DNA from: an uncultured delta proteobacterium | Lineage (GTDB): Bacteria > Desulfobacterota > Binatia > UTPRO1 | NCBI GenBank assembly: GCA_963753325.1 | Contig: CAVWBS010000003.1 | Location: 963,979-1,027,978 of the forward strand | Length of the DNA: 64,000 nt | Direction: 5' to 3' | Part shown: positions 7,707-40,186 of the stretch, piece by piece | How the letters are laid out: every line of letters begins with the position of its first letter | Numbering within the stretch: position 1 is the stretch's first letter | Translations under genes and position numbers: made by a program | Notes under the pieces: model-generated | The model's database searches: none | Told to the model about the DNA's origin: nothing | Seen by the model: only the letters and a program-made list of their open reading frames with translations

Positions 7707-10700
7707 ATGCGCGTGACGTACACCTTCGGCGGCCTGACGCTCGACGAGGCGCTGTACGAGCTGCGCCGCGGACCGATGGCGGTCAAGCTCGAGCCCAAGG
7801 TCTTCGACGTCCTGGTGCATTTGTTGCGGCACCGTGAGCGGGTCGTCTCCAAGGACGAGCTCCTCGCCGAGCTGTGGCCGGGCGAGCACGTGAGCGAGTC
7901 GGTGCTGCCCCGCTGCATCACGGCGCTGCGCAAGGCCGTCGGCGACACGGCCGCGGGTCAGCGGGTGATCCAGACGGTACACGGCCGCGGATACCGGTTC
8001 ATCGCGCCGATCGAGATCGCGGCGCCGAGCGCCGAGGCGTCGCTCGCGCGCGAGGAGGGTCAGGCGGAGCCGGCGCGCGGGATCTTCGCCGGGCGCGAGG
8101 ACGCCATGGCGAAGCTGCGGCGGGCGCTCGCCGACGCGCTCGCCGGCTCCGGCCGCCTCGTGCTCCTGCTGGGCGAGCCCGGAATCGGCAAGACGCGCAC
8201 CGCCGAGGAGATCGCGGTCGACGGACGACGCGCCGGCGCGCTCGTCCTCACCGGCCGCTGCTACGAGGGGGACGGCGCGCCGGCGTTCTGGCCGTGGCTG
8301 CAGATCCTGCGTGCGGCGGGCGCGGCGCCCGAGGCGTCGGCCGTGCTGGCACGGCTCGGCGGCGGCGCCGCAGACGTGGCGCAGCTCGTGCCCGAGCTGT
8401 TCGAGACGCCCGTCGAGCGGCCGGCGTCCGCCCTCGCGCCCGAGCAGGCGCGCTTTCGGCTGTTCGATGCGGTGAGCTGCCTGTTGCGCGCGCTCGCCGC
8501 GACCCGGCCGCTCGTCCTCGTGCTCGACGACCTGCATTGGGCCGACAAGCCGTCCCTGCTGCTGCTCCAGTTTCTCGCGCGCGAGATGGGCGCGATGCGC
8601 GTCCTGCTGGTCGCGACGTATCGTGACGTCGAGCTGCGCCGCCAGCATCCGCTCGCGGCCACGCTCGGGGAGCTGGCGCGCGAGCCGCTCTGCTCGCGCC
8701 TCATCCTGCGAGGCCTCGCGCCGTCGGACGTCGGGACGTTCCTCGCCACCGTCACGGGCGCGCCGCCGACGGAGCGGACGATCGCCACGATCTACGACAT
8801 GACCGAGGGCAATCCCTTCTTCATCGGCGAGATCGTGCGCTTGCTGCTCGATCGCGGGCAAATCGACGCCGGCGACGACCCGGGCTGGGGGTTGACGTTG
8901 CCACAAGGGGTGCGCGAGGCGATCGGCCGGCGCCTCGGTGCGCTGTCCGAGGAGTGCAACCGGGTGCTCACTCTGGCGGCGGTGCTCGGCCGCGAGTTCC
9001 GGCTGGGCGAGTTGCGCGCCCTCGCGGAGCTCGACGCCGCGCGTTTGCTCGAGGTGCTGCACGAGGCGGTCGATGCGCGCATCGTCGCGCCCGTGCTGCG
9101 CGGCAGCGGCGAACGCGCCGTCACGCGCTACGCGTTCGTCCATGCGCTCATCCGCGAGACGCTGTACGAGGAGCTGACCGCCCCGATGCGCTTGCGCCAG
9201 CACCAGCGGGCGGGAGAGGTGCTCGAGGAGGCGCACGCCGCCGACCGCGTTCCCGTGCTCGCCGAGCTGGCGCATCACTTCTATCAGGCGGCGGCCGCGG
9301 GGCAGGCCGAGAAGGCCATTACCTACGCGATCGCGGCGGCCGAGCGCGCCTCGGCCGGCCTGGCGTACGAGGAGGCGGCGGGCCACTACGAGCGCGCGCT
9401 CGAGGCGCTCGACTGCGCGACGCGGCGCGACGACGAGCGCCGCGCGCTCCTGCTGCTCGGCCTCGGCGAGGCGCGCATGGGCGGGCGCGAGCGCGAGGCT
9501 GCGCGGGCGACGTTCCGCGGCGCCGCGGCGGTGGCACGCGTCCTCGGCCGTCCGGATCTGCTGGCTCGTGCGGCGCTCGGCTTCGGGGGCCGGGCCGAGT
9601 TCGGCATCGGACAGGACCCGGAGGTGCGAACCCTGCTCGACGACGCGCTCGAGCGGCTTCCGCCCGGCGACATCCCGCTCCGCTCCCAGCTGCTCAGCCG
9701 GATGGTCGGCACGGTGCCCTACGGCGACTCGATGGCGACGCGTGACGCGCTCAGCGCCGAGGCGGTGGCGCTGGCGCGCCGCGCCGGGGATCCCGCGACG
9801 CTCGCTCAAGCGCTGAACGCACGGCATTGGGCGTTCCTCGGTCCGGATCGCCTGGAGCAACGTCGCACGCTCGGCGACGAGCTGCTGGCGCTCGCCGCGG
9901 ATACCGGGGAGAAGGCCTGGGCGTTCGCCGCGCACGACATCCACTTCACGGCGCTCCTCGGCCTCGGCGACATCTCCGCGGCCGACCGTGAGCTCGACGT
10001 GCTGGGACGCCTCGCCGCCGAGCTGCGGCAGCCGTTGGAGCAATGGTTCGTTGCCTGGTACCGGGCCAGCCGCGCCATCGGCGACGGGCGATTCGACGAG
10101 GGCGAGCGCTGGCTGCGCGAGGGACTCGCGATCGGGGAGCGGGCGCAGCATCCGGCCGCGGTGCCGGCCTTCCGTGGGCAGATGCTGTGGCTGCGCGGCG
10201 AGCAGGGACGCAGCGAGGACATCGCCGAGGTCGAGGACGGACTGAGCTTCCTCCTGCCGCTGTCGCCGGGCACCCGGCCGATTTTGCAGAGCGCGCTCGT
10301 GAACCTCTACGTCGACCAGGGCCGCGTCGACGAAGCGCGCCGCGAGTTCGAGACGGTCGCGGCGCGCGCGTTCCAGGACGTCGAGCGCGACGAGCACTGG
10401 ATGGTGACGATGGCGATGGCGGCCGAGGCCGTCTCGGACCTCGACGACGCCGGCCGGGCGCCGCAGGTGTACGCGCTGCTGGAGCCGTTCGCCGAGCGCA
10501 ACGTCGTCCATGATCTGCTCCGCGCCTACCGCGGCTCGACCGCGCTGTACCTCGCGCTCGCCGCGGGGGCGATGCGCGAGTGGGAGCTCGCCGCCCGGCA
10601 CTTCGAGCAGGCGCTGGTGACGAACGCGCGCCTCGGCAGCCGCCCGTGCGGTGCGCGTGCCGAGTACGAGTACGCGCGCATGCTGCTCCTCCGCGGCCGG

Positions 10701-26502: not shown

Positions 26503-27663
26503 ATGGAGATCGCCGTGCCGGTGCCGGAGCGGTCGGTGTGGCTACGCGGTCCCGGCTGGGACGGGTTCTGGATGCTCAGCGGGCTCTGGCTCGCGCCGAT
26601 CGTCCTCTGGCTTTCCCGCGGATACGCCGACCCGGAGGAGAGCCCGCTCGAAGTGCTCTACTTCGGGCTGACGGCGCTCTTCTGGATCGGTCATCGGTTG
26701 TGCAGCGCGTACCTCGCGTACTGCACCGAAGCGTACCGACCTCTGCTGCGGACGCGGCCGATGCGATTCGTCGTGATCCCGCTGCTCGTCGCAGCTGGAT
26801 GCTTCGCCGTCTTCCTCCCGTCGGACGCCGCCTTGCCGTGGAGCCGCGAGGAACGCCTCGTGGCCTTGGCGATCGTCGACTACATTTTCGTGACGCAGCA
26901 CTTCGCGGCGCAGCATTTCGGCGCGCTCGCCCTGTATCGTGCGCGCGTCGGACGCACCGGCTGCGCGCGCACGCGAACGATGGACCGGCTGTTCGCGCTG
27001 GGTGTCGGCGGCGTCCTCGTCGTGGTGGCGGACGTCCTCGCCGGGGCGGTCGCCTACCAGAACCGGTGGGTCGACCCGTGGCTCTCTGCCGGCTGGCTCG
27101 TATCGACGGAGGAGGCGATCCGCGCCGGCGCCATGCTCGTGCTGCTCTCGGCGACCGCCGCGATGCTCCTCGCGGAGCTGCGTGCGCCGCGATGGTCGCC
27201 GCCGCGCGTGCTCTACGTGCTCGGGGTCGCGGTCATGGTCGCGCTCGCGCTACGCCCGCGGAGCCCGTTTCTCTTCCTCGTGATCTGGACGTCGCAGCAC
27301 TGGATCCTGGCGATCGGCCTCGCCTCTCGAGTGCCGCAGGCGGAGCCGGCCGCACTGCGCGGCGTCGTGCGCCGCGCGCTCCACGCGGTGAACGTACGGC
27401 CCTGGGCCCTCGTGCTTCTGCTCGCGCTCTCGTCGGTCGTTCTCCTGCCGCTGTTCGAGGTCGAGGCGAACCGGCAGGGAGGCGTGTACTACAGCGAATG
27501 GATCTTCGGTGCCTTCGCGACCGGCCTGCGGACCTCCTCCTGGGTTCCCGCGCTGGTCGCGCTCGGCTTCGCGACGGGGTTCATGCACTACCTGCTCGAT
27601 CGCAGCGTCTATCGGCTGTCCGACCCTCGCGTGCGGGCGGCGGCCCGTGGTCTCCTCATCTAG
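26503..27663 (+). CDS. Polytopic membrane protein with His motifs, unknown function
   Basis: About 9-10 hydrophobic segments; GHRL, QHFAAQHFG, SQHW and MHYLLD. Confidence 0.72.
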   Translation: MEIAVPVPERSVWLRGPGWDGFWMLSGLWLAPIVLWLSRGYADPEESPLEVLYFGLTALFWIGHRLCSAYLAYCTEAYRPLLRTRPMRFVVIPLLVAAGCFAVFLPSDAALPWSREERLVALAIVDYIFVTQHFAAQHFGALALYRARVGRTGCARTRTMDRLFALGVGGVLVVVADVLAGAVAYQNRWVDPWLSAGWLVSTEEAIRAGAMLVLLSATAAMLLAELRAPRWSPPRVLYVLGVAVMVALALRPRSPFLFLVIWTSQHWILAIGLASRVPQAEPAALRGVVRRALHAVNVRPWALVLLLALSSVVLLPLFEVEANRQGGVYYSEWIFGAFATGLRTSSWVPALVALGFATGFMHYLLDRSVYRLSDPRVRAAARGLLI

Positions 27664-28664
27664 GATTGCGCGGCCGTCCCCCCGTCGTCCGGCGGAGATT
27701 CCACCGGATGCCACGTCCGGTCGGGATTGAAGAGCTCCATGCTCTTGAACTGTTCCGCCGTGGTGGGACCGAGGTCCTTTTCGTAGACCACGCCGTCGTT
27801 GCTCACGATGAACGTCTTGACGCCGGTCACCCGATACTGCGCGGGCGCCGCGGCGAGCGCAAAACCGCCGATCATGATGCCCTTCACCACGTAGTCCAGG
27901 CGGCCCAGCGGCGCGGCGGGGCCCTGGCCCTTCAAGATCTTGAAGAAGTACCCATGGTAGGGGCTCCCCTTGCCGTAGCCCTGTTCGATCGCCTGCGCGA
28001 CGTTCTCGCCGATCGGCCCGCCCCATGTCCCGTCGGCATTCTTCCAGGCCAGGCCATCCTGCTTTCCCGGCGTGCTGATGATGCGCTGCGCGTACTCGGC
28101 CACGCCGTTGTCGCCGGCCTTCATGACGGCATAGTCGTCCTGGGCCTCCACGTAGCCGTGGCAGATCTGGATGGCGTCGAGCTCGTTTCCGCCGATACGG
28201 CGGTAGAGGATCTCCCGCAGGCCCGCCTTCGAGTCGAAGAGCCACTTGCCGTTGCGATTCACGATCGGCACCGGGAACGGCCAGTCTTCCGCGCCGATCA
28301 CCAGCGAGGCGCGGTCCGGCGTCTGCGGGTCCGTGACGATCGCCTTCTTCTCGCGCGCCTTCGCGACGAACTCCGCCGCCTTCTGCTTCTCGCGCGCGGG
28401 CTCGCCGATGTGGATGATGTCCTTGCCTTCAGGGCCGAGGATCGCGTCGAGGGCGCCGACGTCGTACCTGTCCGCGGCGTCGAGCAGCGCGTCCACCGCG
28501 GCCTGCGGCGAATCGAACGTCTTCTGCGTTGCGGCTCCGGCCGTATCCTGCCCGGGTGCTCCCGCGACCCGGGGCGGGAGCGCCAATAGACACGCGCATA
28601 CGGCTATGAGCGTCCAGGTGACGCTCGTGACGCGATTCGAGCTTGGCAGCGGATTCATGTCCAT
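27660..28664 (-). CDS. DUF2950 family exported protein
   Basis: FDSPQAA, DWPFPVPI, EILYRRIGGNEL, PYHGYFFKIL, YRVTGVKTFIVSNDGVVYEKDLG. Confidence 0.9.
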   Translation of the reverse strand: MDMNPLPSSNRVTSVTWTLIAVCACLLALPPRVAGAPGQDTAGAATQKTFDSPQAAVDALLDAADRYDVGALDAILGPEGKDIIHIGEPAREKQKAAEFVAKAREKKAIVTDPQTPDRASLVIGAEDWPFPVPIVNRNGKWLFDSKAGLREILYRRIGGNELDAIQICHGYVEAQDDYAVMKAGDNGVAEYAQRIISTPGKQDGLAWKNADGTWGGPIGENVAQAIEQGYGKGSPYHGYFFKILKGQGPAAPLGRLDYVVKGIMIGGFALAAAPAQYRVTGVKTFIVSNDGVVYEKDLGPTTAEQFKSMELFNPDRTWHPVESPPDDGGTAAQS

Positions 28665-28697
28665 TCTCCGTTTCCCAGCCATTGGTCCCGGCTCCCT

Positions 28698-30038
28698 CTA
28701 TCGGCGCCGGCCGCCACCGCCGCGGCCGCCACCACCACGGCCGCCGCCGCCACCACCACCACGGCCGCCGCCGCCACCGCCGCGGCTTCCGCCGCCGTAG
28801 CTCGACGCTCCCCGGCTGCTGCTCGCGCGAGCGCTGCTGCCGCTGTAGCCGCTCGAGCCGCCGCCGAAGCCGCCGCGGTCTCCGCCTCCGGACCCTCTCG
28901 ACATGTCCCGGCTGCCGACCCGGTCTGCTCCGCTGGCGCCGCGCCCGCCTCCCATGTCGCGGGTCGAGGCACCGCCGCGGTTGCCGGCGCTTCCGCCTCC
29001 GTAGGTGCTGGGACGATTCCCTCCCTGACCCTGCCGACCCATCTGCTGGCCCTGCTGACCTTGCCGCCCGGTCTGCTGGCGGGCGCTGGCCTGGCGGCTC
29101 GACAACGAGTCGCCGCGCGCGTTTCCGCCGTACTTGTTCGCGGTCGCTCGGTTACTGTACGGCGCGCCGCCGCGGTGCTGCGGATTGTGTTGCCACTTGC
29201 CGTTGTTCGCGTTCCCGCGATTGCCGCTGTTGTTGATGTTGTTGCGATTGAAATTGTTGTTGTTGTTGATCGTGACGTCGTTGTGGCCGCTCCCGCCCCA
29301 ACCGCAGCCGTAGCCCCATCCGCCGCCCCAGGCGGCGCCCATCGCGACCCCGACGCCGAACGACAGCGCCATTCCCGCCGCGTAGTAGCCGGCCGGCGGG
29401 TAGTAGATGGGCGGATACGGATAGACCGGAGCGCCGTAGACGACGACCGGATCGTACGACGGCACGTACACCACCTGCGGGCTCGCCTGCTCGATCACGA
29501 TCACCTGCCGGTTCTCGACGACCTTGGTCTCGACCTTCTGCTGCTGCGTCGTCTTCAGGTTGCCTTTGTCCTCGGCCTTCCTGCGCATGCGCTGCACCGC
29601 CTCCATTACGTCGCTCTGCTGGGCCAGGAAGGCGTTGCCCAGGTCCGTCGTCCATTGGATGTCTTCGGCCAGCCGTTTGACGACGTCGGGAAGCGCCGCC
29701 AGGCCCTGGATGCTCGGGTCCCAGGGTTGCTTCGACACCGCGTCCACCAGGGCTTTGTCCTTCAGGGTCTTGTTCCGCCCGAGCCATTGCTGGAGCTGGA
29801 TGATCTCCAGCGGGTAGGTCGACGCGACGAGCACCTGGCCGAGGAGCGGGTCGGGATAGAGCGCGATCGGCGCTACGAGCGAGTCCAGTTGGTCGGCCGG
29901 GATCTTCGCGGCCTCCTCGTCCGTGGACTCGGCGCGCGCGCTCCGGGGATGAGGCAGCAATCCTGCGGGAACGAGCAACGCCGCGCAAAGCAGCGCCAGC
30001 GAGCTGCGCACGAGATTCCTGAGGCGTCTTGGTTGCAT
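28698..30038 (-). CDS. DUF3300 family exported protein with Gly/Arg-rich disordered tail
   Basis: LDSLVAPIALYPDPLL, WDPSIQGL, LGNAFLAQQSDVM, YVPSYDP; C-terminal GGGRGG runs. Confidence 0.92.
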   Translation of the reverse strand: MQPRRLRNLVRSSLALLCAALLVPAGLLPHPRSARAESTDEEAAKIPADQLDSLVAPIALYPDPLLGQVLVASTYPLEIIQLQQWLGRNKTLKDKALVDAVSKQPWDPSIQGLAALPDVVKRLAEDIQWTTDLGNAFLAQQSDVMEAVQRMRRKAEDKGNLKTTQQQKVETKVVENRQVIVIEQASPQVVYVPSYDPVVVYGAPVYPYPPIYYPPAGYYAAGMALSFGVGVAMGAAWGGGWGYGCGWGGSGHNDVTINNNNNFNRNNINNSGNRGNANNGKWQHNPQHRGGAPYSNRATANKYGGNARGDSLSSRQASARQQTGRQGQQGQQMGRQGQGGNRPSTYGGGSAGNRGGASTRDMGGGRGASGADRVGSRDMSRGSGGGDRGGFGGGSSGYSGSSARASSSRGASSYGGGSRGGGGGGRGGGGGGGRGGGGRGGGGRRR

Positions 30039-30203
30039 GGGGGTCAGCTCCTCCCTCGGGACCGATTCGCCGCAAACATGCTCTTCCGGCGGAGTGCGGG
30101 TCAAGACCGACGGACACCGCAAACGCGGTCCCCGTCCGAGAATCGATCGGACGGGGGTGCAGGTGCCGGCCACCCGCTCCGGCAAGCCGGCACCGCGTCC
30201 CAC

Positions 30204-30641
30204 CTACTCCTTGATCTTCATCTCGATTCCGGACGTCCCCAGCGTGAACTTCACGCCTTTGGTGGTCGATACGAGATCGACGCGGACGCCATTCTGATTC
30301 TTGGCCACAACGGCACTGCCTCCCCCCGCGACGGTCATTCCGGTGCCGACGCTGGTGTAGTTGCCGTTGAAGTCCTCCAGCTTCTTCAAGCCGTACACTT
30401 TCCCCGACGCCGCCAATTTGGTGGCACCGACGTCACCGACGGACAAGCCGCTCACCGAGAGCGGATACTCCTTGCCTTCGTAGGTGAGCGTTCCCTTCGC
30501 CCAGGTGATCCCGACGCCCACCGCGATCGACCCGCCGCTCAGTGCGATCGTCGCATCCGGTTTCTTGTGCTCCTTGCCTTGAGCCACGCCGACGAACGCC
30601 AGCGCGGCGACCATCGTCACTGCCATCGTAATCTTTCGCAC
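30204..30641 (-). CDS. Exported beta-rich protein (DUF1134/EipA-like)
   Basis: AAGGAG RBS, GTG start, signal peptide, GSIAVGVG...GTLTYEGK...NQNGVRV pattern. Confidence 0.65.
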   Translation of the reverse strand: MRKITMAVTMVAALAFVGVAQGKEHKKPDATIALSGGSIAVGVGITWAKGTLTYEGKEYPLSVSGLSVGDVGATKLAASGKVYGLKKLEDFNGNYTSVGTGMTVAGGGSAVVAKNQNGVRVDLVSTTKGVKFTLGTSGIEMKIKE

Positions 30642-30738
30642 GATCCGCTCCTTTTGGCCGTACGGATTCGAGTTCGGCCTTGGTGTATGGTTACGTCTGC
30701 GAACGTTAGGCGACGCAGGGATTTTCGCAAGGTGTCCC

Positions 30739-30755
30739 CTTGCCATTTGGCGCCA
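30739..30755 (-). promoter_or_regulatory. TGGCGC-N4-TGGCAAG motif, copy 1
   Basis: Minus strand TGGCGCCAAATGGCAAG, about 100 bp upstream of the DUF1134-like/DUF3300/DUF2950 cluster. Confidence 0.55.
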
Positions 30756-30820
30756 TGAACCGACGCGCGCGCTTGCGTTCCGGGCCCGATCCGGGCTGGC
30801 TGGCGCTGGGAGAATACGTG

Positions 30821-31891
30821 ATGGAGCGAGCCCGATCCGTGGACGTGACGCGCGTGACGCTCCAGGTGCTCGCGATCGGCATCCTGATCGTCAGCACCTT
30901 CTGGATCCTCCGCCCCTTCCTCGTCGCCTTCACCTGGGCGGCGACGATCGTGATCTCCACGTGGCCGGTCCTGCTGCGCCTGCAACGCATGCTGGGTGGC
31001 CGGCGCTCGTTCGCGGTCGCGATCATGACGGCGGCGTTGACGTTTACCCTCGTGCTGCCGCTCTTCTTTGGCATCACGACGATCGTACAGAACGTGCCTC
31101 GTATCGAAGGCTGGACGAAGGCCGTGGCGGCGATGCCGGTTCCGCAGCCGCCCGCGTGGGTCGAAGCCCTACCGCTCGTCGGCGCGAAGCTCGCTGAGCG
31201 TTGGCGCCAGCTCGCGCTCGCCGGCCCGGCGGAGTGGTCGGCGCACCTCCTGCCGCTCGCGCGGCGGCTCGGCCTCTGGTTCGTCGGCCAGGTGGGAAGC
31301 GTGGCGGCAGTGCTCGCGCAGTTCCTGTTGACGGTGGTCTTCAGCGGCATTCTCTACGCGAACGGCGAGCGGGCCGCGGAGGGCGCCGAGCGGTTCGCCG
31401 CACGCCTCGCCGGTGCGCGCGGGAAAGACGTCGTCCACCTGGCCGGGTCCGCGACCCGGGCGGTCGCGCTCGGCGTCGTGGTTACCGCGGTGCTCCAGTC
31501 CGCGCTCGGCGGCGTCGGGCTGGTCGTCGCGGGTGTTCCGTTCGCCATCTTCCTGACCGCGGTGATGTTCGTCCTCGCCATCGCGCAGGTGGGCGCAGGC
31601 CCGGTGCTGATCGGGGCGACCATCTGGGTATACTGGAAGAGCGGCGCGGCCTGGGGCACGGGCTTCCTCGTGTGGGCCGTCTTCTGCGGGGCGCTCGACA
31701 ACCTGGTGCGCCCGATCCTGATCCGGCGCGGAGCCGACCTCCCGTTGCTGCTCATCTTCGCCGGCGTGATCGGCGGTCTCATCGCGTTCGGCATCCTCGG
31801 CCTCTTCGTCGGTCCGGTGCTGCTCGCAGTCGGCTACACGGTCCTCCTCGAGTGGATCTCGGAGCCGCAGCTCGACGAACCGATGCGCTGA
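30821..31891 (+). CDS. ydiK: AI-2E family transporter (YdiK-like)
   Basis: PFLVAFTWAATIVISTWP, ATRAVALGVVVTA, DNLVRPILIRRGADLP, GLFVGPVLLAV. Confidence 0.88.
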   Translation: MERARSVDVTRVTLQVLAIGILIVSTFWILRPFLVAFTWAATIVISTWPVLLRLQRMLGGRRSFAVAIMTAALTFTLVLPLFFGITTIVQNVPRIEGWTKAVAAMPVPQPPAWVEALPLVGAKLAERWRQLALAGPAEWSAHLLPLARRLGLWFVGQVGSVAAVLAQFLLTVVFSGILYANGERAAEGAERFAARLAGARGKDVVHLAGSATRAVALGVVVTAVLQSALGGVGLVVAGVPFAIFLTAVMFVLAIAQVGAGPVLIGATIWVYWKSGAAWGTGFLVWAVFCGALDNLVRPILIRRGADLPLLLIFAGVIGGLIAFGILGLFVGPVLLAVGYTVLLEWISEPQLDEPMR

Positions 31892-31912
31892 GGCCGCACG
31901 CACGTCATTCGT

Positions 31913-31929
31913 TGGCGCAAGTTGGCAAG
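31913..31929 (+). promoter_or_regulatory. TGGCGC-N4-TGGCAAG motif, copy 2
   Basis: TGGCGCAAGTTGGCAAG, intergenic, about 150 bp upstream of the lipoprotein hydrolase. Confidence 0.55.
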
Positions 31930-32087
31930 AAGTCCGTTGGCGGTCCTGACCGTGCTCGGTAGCGTCGGTGTCGTGGGGCAGCCGAGCAGCAGCACGCGTG
32001 GAACTCGACGATATCTTTTCCGCCGCGGAACGTCGTCGTGGGGCCGAGGATTCGTCTCCATTCCACCGCCGTGACATGGGATTGCCG

Positions 32088-33998
32088 ATGAGCCCGCGGC
32101 GGGTATCGTGGTGCGACGGCACCGTCGCGCTGGTCTGCGCGACGGCGCTGCTCGGGGCGTCCGCGTGCGGACCGCCGATTGGCGTAGTGCGGGTCGACGC
32201 GCGGTCGGTGCAGCGCTCGCTCACCTCGAATGTGCTCTCGACGGGGCACGCCAGCGAGTGGAGCCGCAACACGGTGAACGGCTGGGGGCTGCTCGATCTC
32301 TACGAGAAGGACCCGGCAGCGGCCCTCACGGAGCTGCGCGCCATCGTCACCAGCGGCCGGGGCGGCAGCTCCGAGCTCTTCGCGCTCGCCGAGCTGTCGT
32401 TCCTCCATGCGGAAACGGTGAAGGCGAAGCCGTATTACTTCGCGACCGCGGTGTACGCGTACGCATTCCTGACACCCGAGCACGCCGAGGACGCGCCGCG
32501 CGCGGTGGATCCGCGCGTCCGCCTCGCCGCGGATCTCTACAATCGCGCCATCACCCAGGCGTTCAAGGGACCGCACGGCACCGTCGACCTCGCCGCCGGC
32601 CGCTACGCGCTGCCATTCGGCGCCGTTGACGTCACGATCGATCCCACGTCGTTCGATTGGGGCGATCGCCGGCTGACCGACTTCCTTCCGATCGCGGAAT
32701 TCGCCGTGCACGGCATGCGCAACCGCTACCGGTTCCCCGGCGTCGGCGCGCCGCTCGCGGCGCGTGCCGTCCCGCGCCCGGGTGTCGACGTCGACACCAG
32801 CTTCATCGGTCCGTTCGCGCGCGTGGCGGCGACGGCGTTCCTTCGCCTGGAGAACGTGCACGAGGGCATCGTCTCCGGCGAGCTGCGTGCGAGGCTGGAA
32901 CTCTACAGGGCGAGCGACAGCGAGACGGTTGCCGTGAACGGACGCGACGTTCCCCTGGAAATCGAGGAGACCGCGACGATCGCGTCGCAGCTCGGGTCGG
33001 CGTCGCTGATGTGGGAGAACGAACTCTGGGGCTACCTCGGCCGCGGGCCGAGCGGTGTGAAGCTCCCGCTCCTCGTGAGCACGACGCCCTACGATCCGGG
33101 CCGGATCCCCGTCGTCTTCGTTCACGGGACGGCCTCGAGCCCCGGCCGTTGGGCCAACATGGTGAACGACCTGCTCGCCGATCCGTGGATTCGGCGCCGC
33201 TTCCAGTTCTGGTTCTTCATGTACGACACCGGAAACCCGATCGCGTACTCCGCGATGCTTCTGCGGGACAAGCTCACGGACATGGAGGCACGGCTCGATC
33301 CGGAGGGCCGTGATCCCTGTCTGCGACAGATGATCGTGATCGGTCACAGCCAGGGCGGCCTCCTCACGAAGCTCACCGCGGTCGACACCGGTGCGCGTCT
33401 CTGGAACGCCGTGAGCCGTGTGCCGATCGACGACGTGCCGATGTCGGCGGAGACCCGTGAGCTCCTGCGGCATGCGCTTTTCATTGAGCCGCTGCCCTTC
33501 GTCCACCGACTGGTCTTCGTCGCGACCCCGCATCGCGGCAGCTTCGTCGCGGGACAGTGGTTCAGCAGCATGATCAACCGCTGGGTGCGGCTCCCGCGCA
33601 ATCTCCTCGCAAGCTCACGTGACCTGCTGGTGCACGGCCGGGACGTGTTCTACACCGGCCGGACGCTCGGCCGGTTGCCGACGGCGGCGGAGAACATGAC
33701 CGCGGGGAACCCGTTCCTCGAAGGCCTCGCCGCGATTCCGGTGGTCACGTCGGTGCCGTACCACTCGATCATCGCGGTGAAGGGGCCGGGGCCATTTCTG
33801 GAGGGAAACGACGGCGTCGTTGCCTATCGCAGCGCGCACATCGAAGGGGCCGCATCCGAGCTCGTCGTGCGGTCGACGCACTCGACACAGGGCGAGCCGG
33901 CGACGATCCAGGAGGTGCGGCGGATCCTCCACGTGCACGGCGATGCGCTCAGCGCAACCGGTCTCGAGTGCGTGCCCATGAGCCACCGGGTACCCTAA
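32088..33998 (+). CDS. Lipoprotein alpha/beta hydrolase (esterase/lipase family)
   Basis: LLGASAC lipobox, VVFVHGTASS, GHSQGG nucleophile elbow, TPHRGS, DGVVAY, H-ST. Confidence 0.87.
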   Translation: MSPRRVSWCDGTVALVCATALLGASACGPPIGVVRVDARSVQRSLTSNVLSTGHASEWSRNTVNGWGLLDLYEKDPAAALTELRAIVTSGRGGSSELFALAELSFLHAETVKAKPYYFATAVYAYAFLTPEHAEDAPRAVDPRVRLAADLYNRAITQAFKGPHGTVDLAAGRYALPFGAVDVTIDPTSFDWGDRRLTDFLPIAEFAVHGMRNRYRFPGVGAPLAARAVPRPGVDVDTSFIGPFARVAATAFLRLENVHEGIVSGELRARLELYRASDSETVAVNGRDVPLEIEETATIASQLGSASLMWENELWGYLGRGPSGVKLPLLVSTTPYDPGRIPVVFVHGTASSPGRWANMVNDLLADPWIRRRFQFWFFMYDTGNPIAYSAMLLRDKLTDMEARLDPEGRDPCLRQMIVIGHSQGGLLTKLTAVDTGARLWNAVSRVPIDDVPMSAETRELLRHALFIEPLPFVHRLVFVATPHRGSFVAGQWFSSMINRWVRLPRNLLASSRDLLVHGRDVFYTGRTLGRLPTAAENMTAGNPFLEGLAAIPVVTSVPYHSIIAVKGPGPFLEGNDGVVAYRSAHIEGAASELVVRSTHSTQGEPATIQEVRRILHVHGDALSATGLECVPMSHRVP

Positions 33999-34037
33999 TC
34001 GCCAGGGACCATCCGCCGCGGTACAGCCTCGCCGCGA

Positions 34038-34541
34038 ATGATCCGGGCGCGCGCGGACGAGACTCCCGCGCCGGCGGCGACGCCCGGCATGCTGCGCCCA
34101 TTGGCAGCCGCCGCGATCGCGCTGGGCTGCCTCGGTGGCGCATCGATCAACTCGTTCATCGATCATCCGACCGGCGGGTTCCACCTCGCCCACGAGAACT
34201 GGTTCGGGGAACACACGTACGCGGGCGGCGCCGACAAGGTGTCGCATTTCGTTGCGTTCGATCTCATCGCCCGGGAGCTCGCCGGTGTGTATGGCGTGAA
34301 GGGCTACCCGCGCGGCGCGATTCCAGACCGCGAGCGTCAGGTCGGATTCGAACTCGGGTTGAATCTCGGCGAGATGCTGAGCGCCGTGGACGTCACCCGC
34401 GAGAAGTGGTGGGGCTTCCTCGCGCACGTCGTCGCCGACGATTTCCGCATCCCGTACACCGCCGGCGGGTTCCGCTACGACTTGAACCATGCCCGGTGGC
34501 GCGGGCCGAACACCGGTGAGGGTTGCGGCGCATGCCGCTGA
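34038..34541 (+). pseudogene. Probable internally deleted DUF2279/YfiM-like protein
   Basis: WFGEHTYAGGADKVSH start is joined almost directly to a KGYP...RERQVGFELGLN...GFRYDLNH end; the expected middle region appears absent (from recall of homologues). Confidence 0.5.
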
Positions 34542-34575
34542 GCCCCGCACCTCGATGCAACGATCGTCGGCGTCC

Positions 34576-35610
34576 TCAACCGCTCGCGACGAGCCGTGCC
34601 ATGGTCTCTTCCATGCGGACGCGACGGAACGCCCGTGGCGGGCATCCCGCCCAACGTCGGAACGCGCGCGAGAAATGCGCCGGATCGGAGTAGCCGACCC
34701 GCCGCGAGATGTCCCGCAGCGTAGCCGTCCCGTCGGCGAGGAGACGCGCCGCGGCGGCGAACCGCGCGTTCGCGACCAGCTCCGTGTAGCGCGTACCGGC
34801 GTCCTCCAGGCGGCGCTGGAGCGTCCGGGTGCTGGTACCGATCCATCTCGCGACGAAGCGGATGTCGGCGTCGCCGCCCATGAGCGCGGTGCGAACGACC
34901 TGTGTGATCGCCGTGGGAAGGTCGTGGGCGGCCGCGGACGCCATCCAGCGCTCCAGATCTGCGGGCTGCGGCGCCGCGGCCGTCGGCATCGGGAGCGGCC
35001 GACGCAGCAGCGATCGCGGAAACGTGATGGTCCACGTCGGCTGATCGAAGACGAGCCTGCTGCTGCGGAACATCGGGAGGTCGGCGATAGCCCGCGGCAT
35101 CCCTTTCTTGAGATGAATGACCGGCCGCCATTCCGGGGCGGCGATCGATTTCAGGAGCCGCAGCGTCGTGCAGAGCGAGAACTGCTCGGCTTGTTGATGC
35201 CGGTCGTCGAGGTGCGTCGGAAACCGATGCCAGAGCCGTACGGCATTCCCGGTCTCCGTCAGCCAGAAGCTCTCACCCGAGAAGTACGGCCGCGCTATCT
35301 TCGCTGCCGTCGCCAGCGCGTCGCCGAGCGTGGACGCGGCGGCGACGCGACGGCCGAAGAGCCCGAGGCTTTCGAGCGGCGTCGCGTGGCCGGCGCGCGC
35401 CCCGAGCGTCTCGTTGCCGTCGAGGCGGCCGGCGTGATCGAGGAACCGTGCCACCGCCGGATACGGCAGGAGCAGCTCCGGGTCGTCGAAGACGGCCGAC
35501 GGGAGCTGGGCGCTGCGCAGGATCTCGTCGACCCGGACGCCGGAATCCAGGAGGAAGTCGCGTATCGGGATGATCGAGGCGATCCTGATGAGCGGGATGC
35601 GCTGCTTCAT
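34576..35610 (-). CDS. AraC family regulator (Arabinose_bd_2-type ligand domain + HTH_18)
   Basis: STRTLQRRLEDAGTRY and VGYSDPAHFSRAFRRWAGCPP. Confidence 0.9.
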   Translation of the reverse strand: MKQRIPLIRIASIIPIRDFLLDSGVRVDEILRSAQLPSAVFDDPELLLPYPAVARFLDHAGRLDGNETLGARAGHATPLESLGLFGRRVAAASTLGDALATAAKIARPYFSGESFWLTETGNAVRLWHRFPTHLDDRHQQAEQFSLCTTLRLLKSIAAPEWRPVIHLKKGMPRAIADLPMFRSSRLVFDQPTWTITFPRSLLRRPLPMPTAAAPQPADLERWMASAAAHDLPTAITQVVRTALMGGDADIRFVARWIGTSTRTLQRRLEDAGTRYTELVANARFAAAARLLADGTATLRDISRRVGYSDPAHFSRAFRRWAGCPPRAFRRVRMEETMARLVASG

Positions 35611-35903
35611 GCGCGTACCCGCGCGGAAGAGCATTTCGTGTGTCTCGGGCGCATGCCTCCTGAGCAGAGCACGTTGTATGCCGTGTGATCTCGCGAGGGG
35701 GGATCGCGACTTCGTGCATAGATGGCCGGTGAGGGGCTTCCCGCGCCCCGGAAGGTCGCAGCGACCGTTCTCGGGCATGGGAATGGTGCGGGCCAGTCGA
35801 ATCCCTTGCCCGCGGAGAGGTCCCGTGCCCATGCACGTCCGCACGCGAGGAGGCGGCCGATGGGCCCTGAGCCTCTAGGCCATGCGTCGCGTCGTCTCGA
35901 CGC

Positions 35904-36300
35904 CTATCGATCCACGCCGGCGCGCGCGTCCACCAGTGCCTGATCGAAGGCCTCGAGCCGGGTCAGGCCGCGGCGCGGATACTCGAAGTCGAGGATGACG
36001 TAGGGCGTGAGCGCGGTCACGGCGGCGAACGCGATCATGTGCGGCCATTTGCGCCGGGTCCCGGATGCCATAGCCGCGTGGTGCCCACGTCGAACACGGC
36101 GTTCAGGGCCGGCAGAAGCAGGATGGTGCACGGCTGCGGCGCCGCCCTGGCGCACGCCGCGACCGCCTGCGACCAGAGCTCGGTCTGCAGCGCCGTCGAT
36201 TCGGCGAGCGTTTCGCGCGCAGCCTCTATGGTTTGCTGACGATAGCCGGCAATGCGCGCATCGACGTAGCGGCAGGCTCCGATCGCCGACGGCGGGCGCG
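35904..36300 (-). pseudogene. DUF4239 (bestrophin-like) membrane protein remnant
   Basis: YVDARI...LQTELWSQAV...LLPALNAVFDVGTTR in one frame; HMIAFAAVTALT.YVILDFEYPRRG..R..AFDQAL in another; middle helices and N-terminus missing. Confidence 0.7.
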
Positions 36301-36380
36301 TGCCGCCGCCGGTTTGCGCTCGGCGGCGGCACGGCATCGTGGCCGCGGACGTTGCCGGACTCAAGTCCGGCGTGGTGGTA

Positions 36381-37373
36381 TCACCGACCGGCGACGTGCA
36401 GCTCGACGCGCCGGTTCTGCGCGCGTCCGTCGGCGGTCGCATTGCTGGCGACCGGCTGCGACTCGCCCATGCCCCGGAGCGTCATGCGGCTCCGCGCGAT
36501 GCCGCCCCGGGCGAGGTAGTCCGCGACCGCGCGGGCGCGCCGCTCGGAGAGGCGCTGATTGTAGGCGTCGCTGCCGATCGCGTCGGTATGGCCTTCGACC
36601 TCGATGTCGACGTCACGCTCCTCCTCGAGCGTGCGGACGGCCTCGTCGAGGATCGGGCGCGCGTCGGCGCGGATCGCCGCCTTGTCGAAGTCGAAGTTCA
36701 CGCCGCGCAGCACGATCTTCCGCGCCGGCCGCGGCGCAGGCGGCGGGGGTGGCGGCGGGATCTCCGCAGGCGGCGGCGGAGGCGCCGGCTGGAAGACCCG
36801 CTGGAAGGTGAATCCTGCGAGCGCCAGCTGGCGTGCCACGTCCGAGTGCGGCGACGCGACCAGGTTCATGTAGTCGTACCGCCCGAAGAGGCCGACCGTC
36901 GTGTCGCGGACCACCGTGAAGCGCAGGCCGCCGCCGGCGTTGAACCCGGCGCCGTCGTCGCTCATCGGGCCGCTCATGTCACGGTAGTAGCCGCCTTTCG
37001 CCCCCACGTACGTCTCGACGATCCCCGTCGCCAGGGACAGCTCCGGTCCCCCGGTGATGCTGAAGAGGCTGGAGAGGTCGTCGCCGGTTCCGCCGTCGAA
37101 GCGCCCCTTCTGCGTCTCGAAGAACATGAACTGCGGATTCGCGACGATCGACAACGCGAGCTCATCGGTGAGGTCGAATTGATACCCACCCCAGAATCCG
37201 GCCGTGCCCCCAACGTCGTGTTGGACCGTGCGCCGATACTTGTCGAGGGGTATCGCCGCGCCGACGTTGGCGCCGATCACCGGGCCGTCGGCTCGCGCGG
37301 GCACGATCGACGTGAACGACAGCGCGCACGCGAACCCGAACAGGGCCGTCAACAACATCGCTCGTTTGCGCAT
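36381..37373 (-). CDS. OmpA family outer membrane protein (beta-barrel + Pro linker + OmpA_C)
   Basis: Signal peptide, alternating beta strands, PPPPP linker, VNFDFDK, EGHTDAIGSDAYNQRLSERRA, NRRVE. Confidence 0.93.
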   Translation of the reverse strand: MRKRAMLLTALFGFACALSFTSIVPARADGPVIGANVGAAIPLDKYRRTVQHDVGGTAGFWGGYQFDLTDELALSIVANPQFMFFETQKGRFDGGTGDDLSSLFSITGGPELSLATGIVETYVGAKGGYYRDMSGPMSDDGAGFNAGGGLRFTVVRDTTVGLFGRYDYMNLVASPHSDVARQLALAGFTFQRVFQPAPPPPPAEIPPPPPPPAPRPARKIVLRGVNFDFDKAAIRADARPILDEAVRTLEEERDVDIEVEGHTDAIGSDAYNQRLSERRARAVADYLARGGIARSRMTLRGMGESQPVASNATADGRAQNRRVELHVAGR

Positions 37374-37449
37374 AGCCTCCTCCTGTGCCTCTCTTCGTTG
37401 GTGTTCTGCCTAAGCTTTATAATCAAGCGTCCGAGACACAAGGCGCAGT

Positions 37450-37466
37450 CTTGCCATATCGCGCCA
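37450..37466 (-). promoter_or_regulatory. TGGCGC-N4-TGGCAAG motif, copy 3
   Basis: Minus strand TGGCGCGATATGGCAAG, about 77 bp upstream of the OmpA start. Confidence 0.55.
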
Positions 37467-37521
37467 CGACGTCGAGCTTGAGCGGTTGGATCACCCGCGC
37501 GCTTCTGGCAGAAGTTCGAGC

Positions 37522-38466
37522 ATGCGCAACCATCCCGTACGTTTCGGCGTCCAGACCGGCCAGCAGATGGTCGAGTGGTCCCGGATGCTCGCGCTCTGGC
37601 GGAGCGTCGATGCCTGGGGCTACGACTCGCTCTGGAACTTCGACCACTTCTACCCGATCTTCGTGCCGCCGGACGGACCGTGCCTCGAGGGGTGGACGAC
37701 GCTCGCGGCGTTGGCGCAAGCGACGTCGCGCGCACGCGTCGGCACCCTGGTGAGCGGCAACACGTATCGCCATCCGTGCGTCACGGCGAAGATGGCCGCG
37801 ACGCTCGATCACGTGAGCGGCGGCCGCTTCAACCTCGGCATCGGCGCCGGCTGGTTCGAACTCGAGCACCGCAACTTCGGCATCGACTTCAAGTCGGTGC
37901 GCGGCCGCCTCGACGCGCTCGACGAGTCGTGCCGCATCATCAAGGGCATGTTCACCGAGGAGCGGACGACGTTCCACGGCAAGCACTACACGGTGACGGA
38001 GGCGATCGGCCTGCCGAAGCCGCTGCAGCGGCCGCATCCGCCGATCATGATCGGCGGCACCGGCGAGAAGGTGCTGCTGCGGATCGTGGCCGAGCACGCC
38101 GACATGTGGAACTCCTACGGCACGGCGGAGCGCATGGGCGAGCTGATCGACATCATCCGCCGGCACGGAGACGCGGTCGGCCGCGACACCGACGCGATCG
38201 AGAAGACGGTGATGATGCCGCTCTGCTATCGCGCGTCGAAGGACCGCGAGCAGTTCGTCTGCTCGGTGGCCGCCGCCACCAGCCAGACGACCCCCGAGGC
38301 GGCGCGGGCGCGCGTCATGATCGGCGACGCGCAGGAATGTCTCGCGACGATCGAGCGCTACACGCGTGTCGGCGTGACGCACTTCATCTTCATGACGTTC
38401 GCCCCCTACGTCGAGGAGGAGATCCAGCGCTTCGCGGAGGAGGTGATCCCGCGGGTGCGGTCGTAG
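37522..38466 (+). CDS. LLM-class oxidoreductase (F420-dependent-like, TIGR03560-type)
   Basis: [57 protein letters not shown]. Confidence 0.9.
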
Positions 38467-38473
38467 CGGCGGC

Positions 38474-39182
38474 TCAGGCGAGGTCGAAGAGCAGGAGCTC
38501 GCTGCGGCCGGCGCCGCCGTCGGCGACGATCTCCAGCGCGTGCTGGTCCGCGACCGCCGCGCCGTCGCCGGCACCGAGCACGGCATCGTCGAGGCGCACG
38601 CGTCCGTCCGTGACCTGCACCCAGGCGTAGCGGCCCGGCGCGAGCGCGTGCGTGACGCGCTCGCCGGCGCCGAGGACCGCGGCGTGGATCCGGACGTCCT
38701 GGTGCACCCGCACCGAGCCCTCCGTGCCGTCGTGCGACACGATGAGCCGGAGGCGCCCGCGATGCTCCGCTTCGGGAAAGGCCTTCTGCTCGTACTCGGG
38801 CCGCAGGCCGCGGGTTTCGGGCAGAATCCAGAATCTGCAGCAGGTGCACCGGCTCGTGGCGCGACGCATTGTACTCGCTGTGGGTGATGCCGGTGCCGGC
38901 GCTCATCCGTTGCACGTCGCCCGGACGGATCGTCGATCCCGTGCCCATGCTGTCGGCGTGGGCGAGGGCGCCCGCGAGGACGAACGTGACGATCTCCATG
39001 TCCGCGTGCGGATGCGTCGGGAAGCCGCGGCCGGGCTGCACGCGGTCTTCGTTGATGACCCGCAGCGCGCGGAAGCCCATGTGCGCCGGATCGTGGTAGT
39101 CGCCGAAGGAGAAGGTGTGGAACGTATCGAGCCAGCCGTGATCGAAGTGGCCGCGCTCGGCGCTCGGGCGAAGGGTGATCAT
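38474..39182 (-). CDS. Pirin family protein (+1 frameshift as assembled at about 38832)
   Basis: [38 protein letters not shown]; removing one T from CAGATTCTGG gives LQIWILPE and a 235-aa ORF. Confidence 0.92.
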
Positions 39183-39301
39183 CGAGACGGCTCCTCTGAG
39201 ACAGTGCTGGGTCGCTGCAAGTGTGGCGAACGGCGCGTGTCTGCGCAACCGTGCCGGCGGCAATGGACCTCCCGGCGATCTTTCTGTACTTCCCCGGTGG
39301 T

Positions 39302-40186
39302 ATGTCGAAAGGACCGCTGCCGCCGCCGCGGAAGCTCGTCGATCCGCGGCTGCGCCGGACGATCGTCCGCGAGGGCGCGCCGCGCCGCGTCCTCGGCGAC
39401 ATCTACCATGCGCTGCTGAACGCGCACTGGTCGGTCCTGTTCGCGCTCTTTGCCGTCTACTATCTGGTGGCGAATACGTTGTTCGCGCTGGCGTATCTCG
39501 CGGGCGGCGACGACCTCGCGAACGCGCGCCCGGGCTCGTTCGCCGACGACTTCTTCTTCAGCGTCCAGACGCTGGCGACGATCGGCTACGGCTCGATCTG
39601 GCCGAAGACGCTGTATGCCAACGTGCTGGTGGCGCTCGAGGCCCTGATCGGCGTGACCGGCTTCGCCCTGGCCGCGGGCCTCTTCTTCGCCAAGTTCTCG
39701 CGGCCGACGGCACGGGTGCTGTTCAGCAAGGTCGCCGTGATCACGGCGCGCGACGGTGTCCCGTCGTTGATGGTGCGCATGGCCAACGAGCGGGCGAACC
39801 AGGTCGTCGAGGCGCAGGTGCAGGTGTCGCTCGCCCGCAGCGAGCGGACGATCGAGGGCGAGGAGGTGCGGCGGTTCTACGACCTGGCGCTCACCCGCAC
39901 GCGCACGCCGATCTTCCTGCTCTCGTGGACGGTCATCCATCCGATCACCCCGCAGAGCCCGCTCTACGGCATGACGCCCGAGTCGCTGCTCGAGACGGAG
40001 GGCGAGATCATCGTCTCGGTGACGGGCGTCGACGAGACGCTCTCGCAGGCGATCCGCGCGCGCTATTCCTATCTTCCCGACGAGGTGGTCTGGGGCGCGC
40101 GCTTCGCCGACATCATGTCGACCCTGCCCGACGGCCGCCGCCGCGTCGACTACACCCGATTCCACGAGGTCGTGAGCGCGAGCTGA
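39302..40186 (+). CDS. Inward-rectifier K+ channel (KirBac family)
   Basis: [14 protein letters not shown] selectivity filter, [27 protein letters not shown]. Confidence 0.93.

Follow-up and report, generated by a model that had tools for sequence, protein, structure and literature searches.

A 19-bp intergenic box linked to an AraC/XylS-family gene as the probable operator of an envelope regulon in Binatia

We analysed a stretch of 64,000 nucleotides (nt) from an uncultured soil bacterium of the class Binatia (GCA_963753325.1, contig CAVWBS010000003.1, here C3:963979–1027978; hereafter the window), part of a 4.92-Mb assembly of 70% G+C in three contigs. The window contains three copies of the motif TGGCGC-N4-TGGCAAG (boxes 1 to 3). 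We consider it probable that this box is the operator of an AraC/XylS-family regulator encoded in the same region (34576–35634, minus strand), likely an activator that would act next to or overlapping the -35 element at the promoters of an envelope regulon.

The three copies lie at 30739–30755 (minus), 31913–31929 (plus) and 37450–37466 (minus). Base composition predicts about 0.005 copies in a stretch of this size and about 0.4 in the whole genome, and 100 dinucleotide-preserving shuffles of the window yielded none; the count, the composition and the shuffles confirm what a sequence-only reading of this DNA had reported for the three copies and their chance expectation. The genome as a whole has just one further exact copy, at C1:135285–135301 (minus), which makes four. 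Judged against 4233 genes predicted with a simple codon-bias caller (83% coding), each of the four falls in intergenic DNA, 77–159 nt 5' of a co-oriented gene for an exported protein. The copies are thus not randomly placed across the genome, and the earlier description of the motif as intergenic and co-oriented with an envelope gene holds. Near misses behave differently: just one of the seven one-mismatch copies and 50 of the 267 two-mismatch copies in this genome are intergenic, which is the chance ratio. A 19-bp weight matrix, trained on 31 sites that came mainly from relatives (four were from this genome), scores the four sites at 24.5–30.6 bits, whereas the next best match, at 19.0 bits, is in coding DNA. 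As the four sites stand clear of that match and the near misses are spread over coding and non-coding DNA at chance, the motif is real, sharply defined and rare. These data support a cis-regulatory role for the 17-base motif in a small regulon made up preferentially of genes for envelope and exported proteins.

The consensus of 76 non-identical sites from 16 Binatia genomes is 19 bp long, TGGCG(C/T)-rAAA-TGGCAAGAc. Adenine occupies box positions 7, 8 and 9 in 48, 58 and 70 of these sites, respectively, and position 17 in 59. None of these positions was used in selecting the sites, so their conservation is independent evidence of selection; the spacer that had been taken for four unspecified bases is A-rich and part of the site, and the motif extends 3' by "Ac". 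TGGC begins at position 0 in 67 of the 76 sites and at position 10 in 63, which makes a direct repeat with a 10-bp period. The box nevertheless consists of two unequal sub-boxes, TGGCGY (positions 0–5) and TGGCAAGA (positions 10–17; box B), whose starts, being 10 bp apart, lie on the same face of the helix. Around the 76 sites, both strands were examined from -45 to +80, and no offset showed a second box.

Most boxes are co-oriented with the downstream gene and are followed at a fixed distance by a -10-like TA. The dinucleotide TA is most frequent at +37/38 (22 and 16 of the 76 sites, against a chance estimate of about 1.7 per position) or, in the genus of the window, at +47. In most lineages TGGCAAG precedes this TA by 20–21 nt, and the box would cover the -35 region. 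In the genus of the window, all six sites have TA at +45–49 and TTG at +24/25, one helical turn farther. What is probably the same activator box thus stands in either of two registers, which differ by one helical turn, depending on lineage. The TA peak and the co-orientation support a site of fixed orientation beside or over the predicted -35 element of the target promoter.

Two sister lineages carry the regulator, namely G004 (70% identical) and a set of metagenome contigs from ENA (L110–L113, 73% identical), and boxes 1 and 2 are conserved in both. Box 1 is kept at the orthologous place before an EipA-like gene in G004 and L111, and box 2 before a hydrolase gene in G004 and L111–L113; the intergenic DNA around them is about 70% identical overall to that of the sister lineages. 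No box of at least 8 bits lies within 1.5 kb of the EipA-like genes of G001 and G003, two genomes of the same genus that lack the regulator, of those of G020, or of the unlinked paralogs in G000 (the genome of the window) and G004. Relatives without the regulator are also without the box. A more distant regulator homolog (33% identical, L115) is accompanied by three boxes of 22–23 bits; homologs of 28–29% identity in Pseudomonas and in a Polyangiales metagenome-assembled genome have no box.

The regulator gene lies between boxes 2 and 3. Its product combines an N-terminal PF12625 domain with a C-terminal double helix-turn-helix (PF12833 HTH_18, E 6.8e-20, plus PF00165 HTH_AraC). Alignment to MarA placed both recognition helices, and these regions are kept across homologs (RTLQRR and AHF(T/S)RAFRRW). 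A second AraC-family gene, on contig C1, encodes a protein 44% identical over its full length, and the two are each other's only close paralogs in the genome. The fourth box occupies a 180-bp divergent gap with this paralog on one side and an operon for a lipoprotein, a Ysc84-like protein and a secreted protein on the other. Each of the four boxes of the genome is thus at most about 3.9 kb away from one or other of the only two genes of this AraC subfamily. Among named proteins, the best NCBIfam match is the QhpR model NF049968; at 166.7 bits it is below the curated cut-off of 250, and we rejected the regulator as a QhpR equivalog. The alignment to VirS of Mycobacterium tuberculosis (PDB 8rcx) is full-length (E 1.5e-9), while similarity to SoxS (E 7.5e-4) and RamA (2e-4) is confined to the DNA-binding domain. 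All homologs of more than 30% identity are metagenomic proteins without names.

Over 40 relatives taken as a whole the exact pattern is not enriched, with about 19 matches as against about 21 for a reversed-pattern control; the background, about 0.5 exact copies per 5-Mb genome, equals that control. Homologs of the regulator are present in only 16 of the 121 genomes of the class, and it is these that the pattern follows: in the 340 kb around 24 homologs, the exact motif occurs 10 times and a version with one mismatch about 18 times. Among the 45 sites with a score of 14 bits or more, 42 are intergenic, most of them 15–300 nt 5' of a co-oriented gene, and a further set is intergenic in 36 of 38 cases. 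A box of at least 19 bits lies within 300 nt of 16 of the 28 homolog genes, typically in a divergent intergenic region or just downstream. A motif-first search in G035 gave five copies with an A-rich spacer in the whole genome, all of which adjoin AraC homologs. The regulon of family f10 is larger, with 11–16 pattern matches in G043, G075 and G118.

The boxes, predicted promoters and genes discussed here are as follows.
27660–30641, minus strand: target operon 1, comprising EipA-like (30204–30641), DUF3300 (28698–30011) and DUF2950 (27660–28658) genes, from Pfam and gene calls
30703–30730, minus strand: candidate sigma-70-type promoter below box 1, with TTGCGA at 30725–30730, a 16-nt spacer and TAACGT at 30703–30708
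30737–30755, minus strand: box 1 (TGGCGCCAAATGGCAAGGG), 24.5 bits, 96 nt 5' of the EipA-like gene
30821–31891, plus strand: AI-2E-family transporter gene (Pfam), divergent from box 1
31913–31931, plus strand: box 2 (TGGCGCAAGTTGGCAAGAA), 25.6 bits, 157 nt 5' of the hydrolase-like lipoprotein gene
31937–31965, plus strand: candidate promoter below box 2, with TTGGCG at 31937–31942, a 17-nt spacer and TAGCGT at 31960–31965
32088–34541, plus strand: target operon 2, comprising genes for an alpha/beta-hydrolase-like lipoprotein of 636 aa (32088–33998) and a DUF2279 lipoprotein (34038–34541), from Pfam
34576–35634, minus strand: AraC/XylS-family regulator gene, the proposed box binder, with a PF12625 N-terminal domain and HTH_18/HTH_AraC by Pfam
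36381–37373, minus strand: target gene 3, for an OmpA-family protein with a signal peptide (Pfam)
37417–37425, minus strand: A+T-rich TGaTTATAA in the OmpA leader, a possible extended -10 as read from the sequence
37448–37466, minus strand: box 3 (TGGCGCGATATGGCAAGAC), 30.6 bits, the best match of the genome, 75 nt 5' of the OmpA-family gene
30725–30755 of the window (minus strand), C1:135283–135301 (minus strand) and L111 7081–7130: inverted box-B-like hexamers

The neighbours named in the sequence-only reading, that is the DUF1134-like/DUF3300/DUF2950 cluster, the lipoprotein hydrolase and OmpA, are those recovered by Pfam; EipA is the current name of the former DUF1134 family.

From these arrangements we infer that the AraC-family protein binds the box and that it activates rather than represses. 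Because the two sub-boxes face the same side of the helix, one AraC-type domain would contact both, with its two helix-turn-helix units sitting in two adjacent major grooves according to the MarA/Rob/XylS paradigm. Each promoter would carry one box, centred near -41 and covering the -35 region in most Binatia lineages, or centred near -51 and directly preceding a TTGnnn -35 element in the genus of the window. Activators that recruit RNA polymerase typically bind at either of these positions; activation is therefore the most likely mode of action, and the regulator would switch its promoters on when the PF12625 domain senses a presumed signal. Transcripts are predicted to start about 59 nt beyond the first T of the box in the genus of the window and about 49 nt beyond it in family f10.

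Published sites of AraC/XylS-family proteins include TGCA-N6-GGNTA for XylS, CACC-N5-CTTCAA for MekR and GCAC-N7-CAA for Rob (PMC4514859). The proposed system resembles XylS of the Pseudomonas putida TOL plasmid and MekR in combining an N-terminal domain for sensing or dimerisation with a C-terminal double helix-turn-helix, as well as in the layout of the site, a box of 4–6 bp, a spacer of about 6 bp and a box of 5–7 bp, of which the promoter-proximal copy abuts or overlaps the -35 element. XylS and MekR, however, use two tandem copies of the site as dimers, whereas the Binatia promoters have a single box within -45 to +80; the box sequences are unrelated, and the Binatia N-terminal domain is PF12625 and not of the XylS type. 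The single asymmetric box of about 19–20 bp, bound by one DNA-binding domain and A/T-rich at its centre, is shared with the marbox of MarA, SoxS and Rob in Escherichia coli. Martin and colleagues reportedly distinguished, in 1999, class II and class I* marbox promoters, in which the marbox takes one of two registers, over the -35 element or about one turn upstream; the two registers of the Binatia box resemble these. Unlike the Binatia regulator, MarA and SoxS have no sensor domain, and the marbox differs in sequence (GCAC-N7-CAA/TAAA, PMC4514859). QhpR, which controls quinohemoprotein amine dehydrogenase genes, and VirS share the PF12625 plus HTH_18 layout, but their targets are unrelated, with no qhp or mymA genes present here, and we found no published operator for comparison. 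In kind, this is a standard AraC/XylS-type local regulon without a new mechanism, newly defined for an unstudied lineage.

Several observations weigh against the AraC-family protein as the box binder. In the window, its gene is 1.8–3.9 kb from the boxes and adjoins none of them, and most of the related loci were found through a search with the regulator, which makes that part of the linkage circular. For four homologs the stretch examined contains no box, although they share the recognition helices of box-bearing homologs; as the helices are the same in both groups, covariation of recognition helix and box was tried and proved uninformative. Two strong boxes in G118 aim away from the neighbouring genes; the model does not account for these, nor for the inverted arrangement GGCAAG-N6-CTTGCC seen in the genus of the window. 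Finally, G118, G043 and G075 contain many boxes far from any detected homolog, a distribution that a global, unlinked regulator would also explain.

Such a regulator, for example an OmpR/PhoB-type response regulator binding as two tandem protomers, with the AraC gene a mere member or neighbour of the regulon, is the strongest of the alternatives, though we consider it unlikely. Envelope regulons are often controlled by two-component systems, and a TGGC repeat with a 10-bp period suits tandem protomers. The halves of the repeat, however, differ once the four shared bases are passed (GC versus AAGA), and the A-rich spacer between them is conserved too. By Pfam, no response-regulator or histidine-kinase gene is present within 27–40 kb of the window, and the neighbours of the boxes include no other DNA-binding gene; beside the C1 site, none of either kind was recognised by reading the proteins, without a Pfam scan. 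The lack of a second box and of a linked response-regulator gene makes two tandem protomers less likely than one asymmetric box. Genomes and loci without the AraC homolog also lack the box, and in many lineages the box is found in the divergent gap between regulator and target, both of which point to the AraC-family protein instead. The sequence-only reading had proposed the site of a tandem-binding regulator that it did not name; a regulated site stands, but with an AraC/XylS-family candidate linked to it and a single asymmetric box likelier than a tandem one. Of the two outcomes that this reading had named as refuting, random placement of the copies over the genome and lack of conservation in sister taxa, neither was observed.

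If the AraC-family protein is the binder, it might still be mainly a repressor or a dual regulator whose boxes occlude the promoters, which we regard as improbable. Some proteins of this family do repress, the box covers the predicted -35 region in most lineages, and some reversed boxes adjoin the regulator gene itself, suggesting autoregulation. Against repression, the sequence under the box in the -35 region (AAGACn) would make a poor -35 element, as is typical of activator-dependent promoters; in the genus of the window the box is upstream of the -35 element and not on it; and a single fixed orientation with a fixed distance to the -10 element is what an activator needs.

Still less probable, to the point of being a minor concern, is direct recognition of the motif by an alternative sigma factor, the promoter element being either a sigma-54 variant one base shorter or an extracytoplasmic function (ECF)-type -35 element. 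The box does resemble the -24/-12 elements of sigma-54 promoters (TGGCAC-N5-TTGCW) in its upstream TGGC and its GC-containing downstream element (TGGC...TGGCA), rpoN is present, and the distance to the downstream TA is fixed. In all copies, however, the GG-to-GC spacing is 9, one base short of the required 10, a deviation that sigma-54 does not tolerate, and a sigma-70-like -10 element follows the box. The genome keeps the canonical spacing elsewhere, with 34 occurrences of TGGCAC-N5-TTGC as opposed to 0–7 at other spacings (2–8), and none of nine neighbouring proteins has a Sigma54_activat domain that would indicate a linked enhancer-binding protein. The distance from the box to the -10-like element takes two values that differ by 10 bp, which an activator allows but a sigma factor does not. 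The earlier statement that the spacing is not that of a canonical sigma-54 site is therefore correct, and the spacing together with the separately enriched canonical sites rules out a sigma-54 promoter. The 34 exact sites in G000 amount to a sizeable canonical sigma-54 regulon in their own right.

That the pattern is functionless, a product of chance or of post hoc choice, can be dismissed: the motif was picked after being seen, but it is absent from all 100 shuffles, is kept in sister genomes, recurs in 16 genomes with conserved positions that played no part in selection, and is intergenic in 4/4, 42/45 and 36/38 sites.

With the AraC-family protein as the preferred binder, the regulon of the window's genome comprises four promoters, those of the EipA-like/DUF3300/DUF2950 operon, the hydrolase-like lipoprotein/DUF2279 operon, the OmpA-family gene, and the C1 operon for the lipoprotein, Ysc84-like and secreted proteins. 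Across genomes, the first gene behind a box encodes an exported protein in 37 of 68 cases, as opposed to 28% of all genes by the same crude signal-peptide rule, and many of the remaining first genes show signal peptides or lipoboxes clipped by the start calls. Recurrent targets by Pfam are EipA-like, DUF3300/DUF2950, OmpA-like, glycine-zipper, BON, Ysc84-like, PqiA, DUF2092 and DUF3604 proteins; sulfatase, DUF1254/DUF1214, outer-membrane efflux, bestrophin-like and PPK2 proteins were also confirmed by Pfam, and PqiB and PqiC after PqiA, AI-2E-type homologs (G075, G043) and an ATP synthase operon were read from sequence or gene order. "Envelope regulon" is a fair label for this set.

In E. coli, several of the target families belong to the RpoS-dependent genes of osmotic or envelope stress, from which we infer a link of the targets to osmotic or envelope stress. 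That the regulator might be the master switch of a class-wide envelope and osmotic stress programme in Binatia is a tentative and rather doubtful extension. If true, a one-component AraC-type sensor would fill in this phylum the role that alternative sigma factors or two-component systems have elsewhere, and several DUF families would gain a functional context. In the literature, the only relevant item found was that YacH of E. coli, a DUF3300 protein, appears in Rob and CpxR expression tables; searches on DUF2950/DUF3300, QhpR, Binatia with AraC and the box sequence otherwise gave nothing relevant, and nothing published was found on gene regulation in uncultured Binatia. What the present analysis adds is a proposed regulator–operator pair, its 19-bp consensus and, by comparison across genomes, a regulon that ranges in size from 4 to about 15 promoters per genome. 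The circuit ties EipA-like/DUF1134, DUF3300, DUF2950, DUF2279, DUF2092, DUF3604 and DUF1254/DUF1214 proteins to the envelope, which is a functional lead for these families.

At the individual sites of the window, the candidate promoter below box 1 has the register of the other sites of its genus, and G004 and L111 both retain the two hexamers of the candidate promoter below box 2; in L111 the gene order of target operon 2 is also the same. A simple promoter and terminator scan of 30100–37600 gave nothing above shuffles, and Rfam at a permissive threshold gave no match in 27000–39000, so no known RNA element overlies the boxes. Box 1 is 65 nt from the start of the divergent AI-2E-family transporter gene, a possible member of the regulon; in G075 and G043, 362-aa genes stand directly behind a co-oriented box, their AI-2E homology being read from the N-terminal sequence only.

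In the genus of the window, box B recurs as its reverse complement in the -35-like hexamer that follows the box by 7–8 nt (GGCAAG-N6-CTTGCC, GCAAGG-N5-CCTTGC). It could be a plain TTGnnn -35 element, a second, inverted contact, or a hairpin. The OmpA leader contains the A+T-rich sequence TTGATTATAAAGCTTAGG (37410–37430, minus) within a genome of 70% G+C, and the extended -10 proposed there (TGaTTATAA) may give expression independent of the box.

Some loci of relatives have features of their own. In G118, L064 (G118:C191) has boxes of 26.6 and 33.1 bits at 7933–7951 and 9080–9098, both on the minus strand, which flank an AraC homolog and have no downstream TA; these reversed boxes may serve in autoregulation, or as activator sites in reverse orientation before a PqiA-like operon. 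A 69-kb contig of G075 (G075:C246; L057, L080–L082) carries an AraC homolog and at least 12 boxes. Box targets in G075 and G043 include genes for a sulfatase, DUF2092 and glycine-zipper proteins, a sigma-54-dependent activator and an AI-2E-like transporter, and G075:C259 has an apparent complete second ATP synthase operon among them. In G035, three contigs (C15, C16 and C17; L058–L060) encode near-identical AraC homologs, each followed by boxes, DUF3604 and a gene for a 477-aa secreted protein, an arrangement that reflects either a recent multi-copy island or assembly redundancy.

The 750 nt between the OmpA-family and regulator genes (35635–36380) hold only one open frame, of 142 aa (35904–36332, minus), which has no Pfam match; a bestrophin-like gene remnant was considered for this interval and found no support. 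Box 3 might also drive the regulator gene. Farther along the window, 39263–40186 (plus) encodes a bacterial inward-rectifier-type potassium channel (IRK, IRK_C, Ion_trans_2), which adjoins a pirin-like cupin gene (38474–38869).

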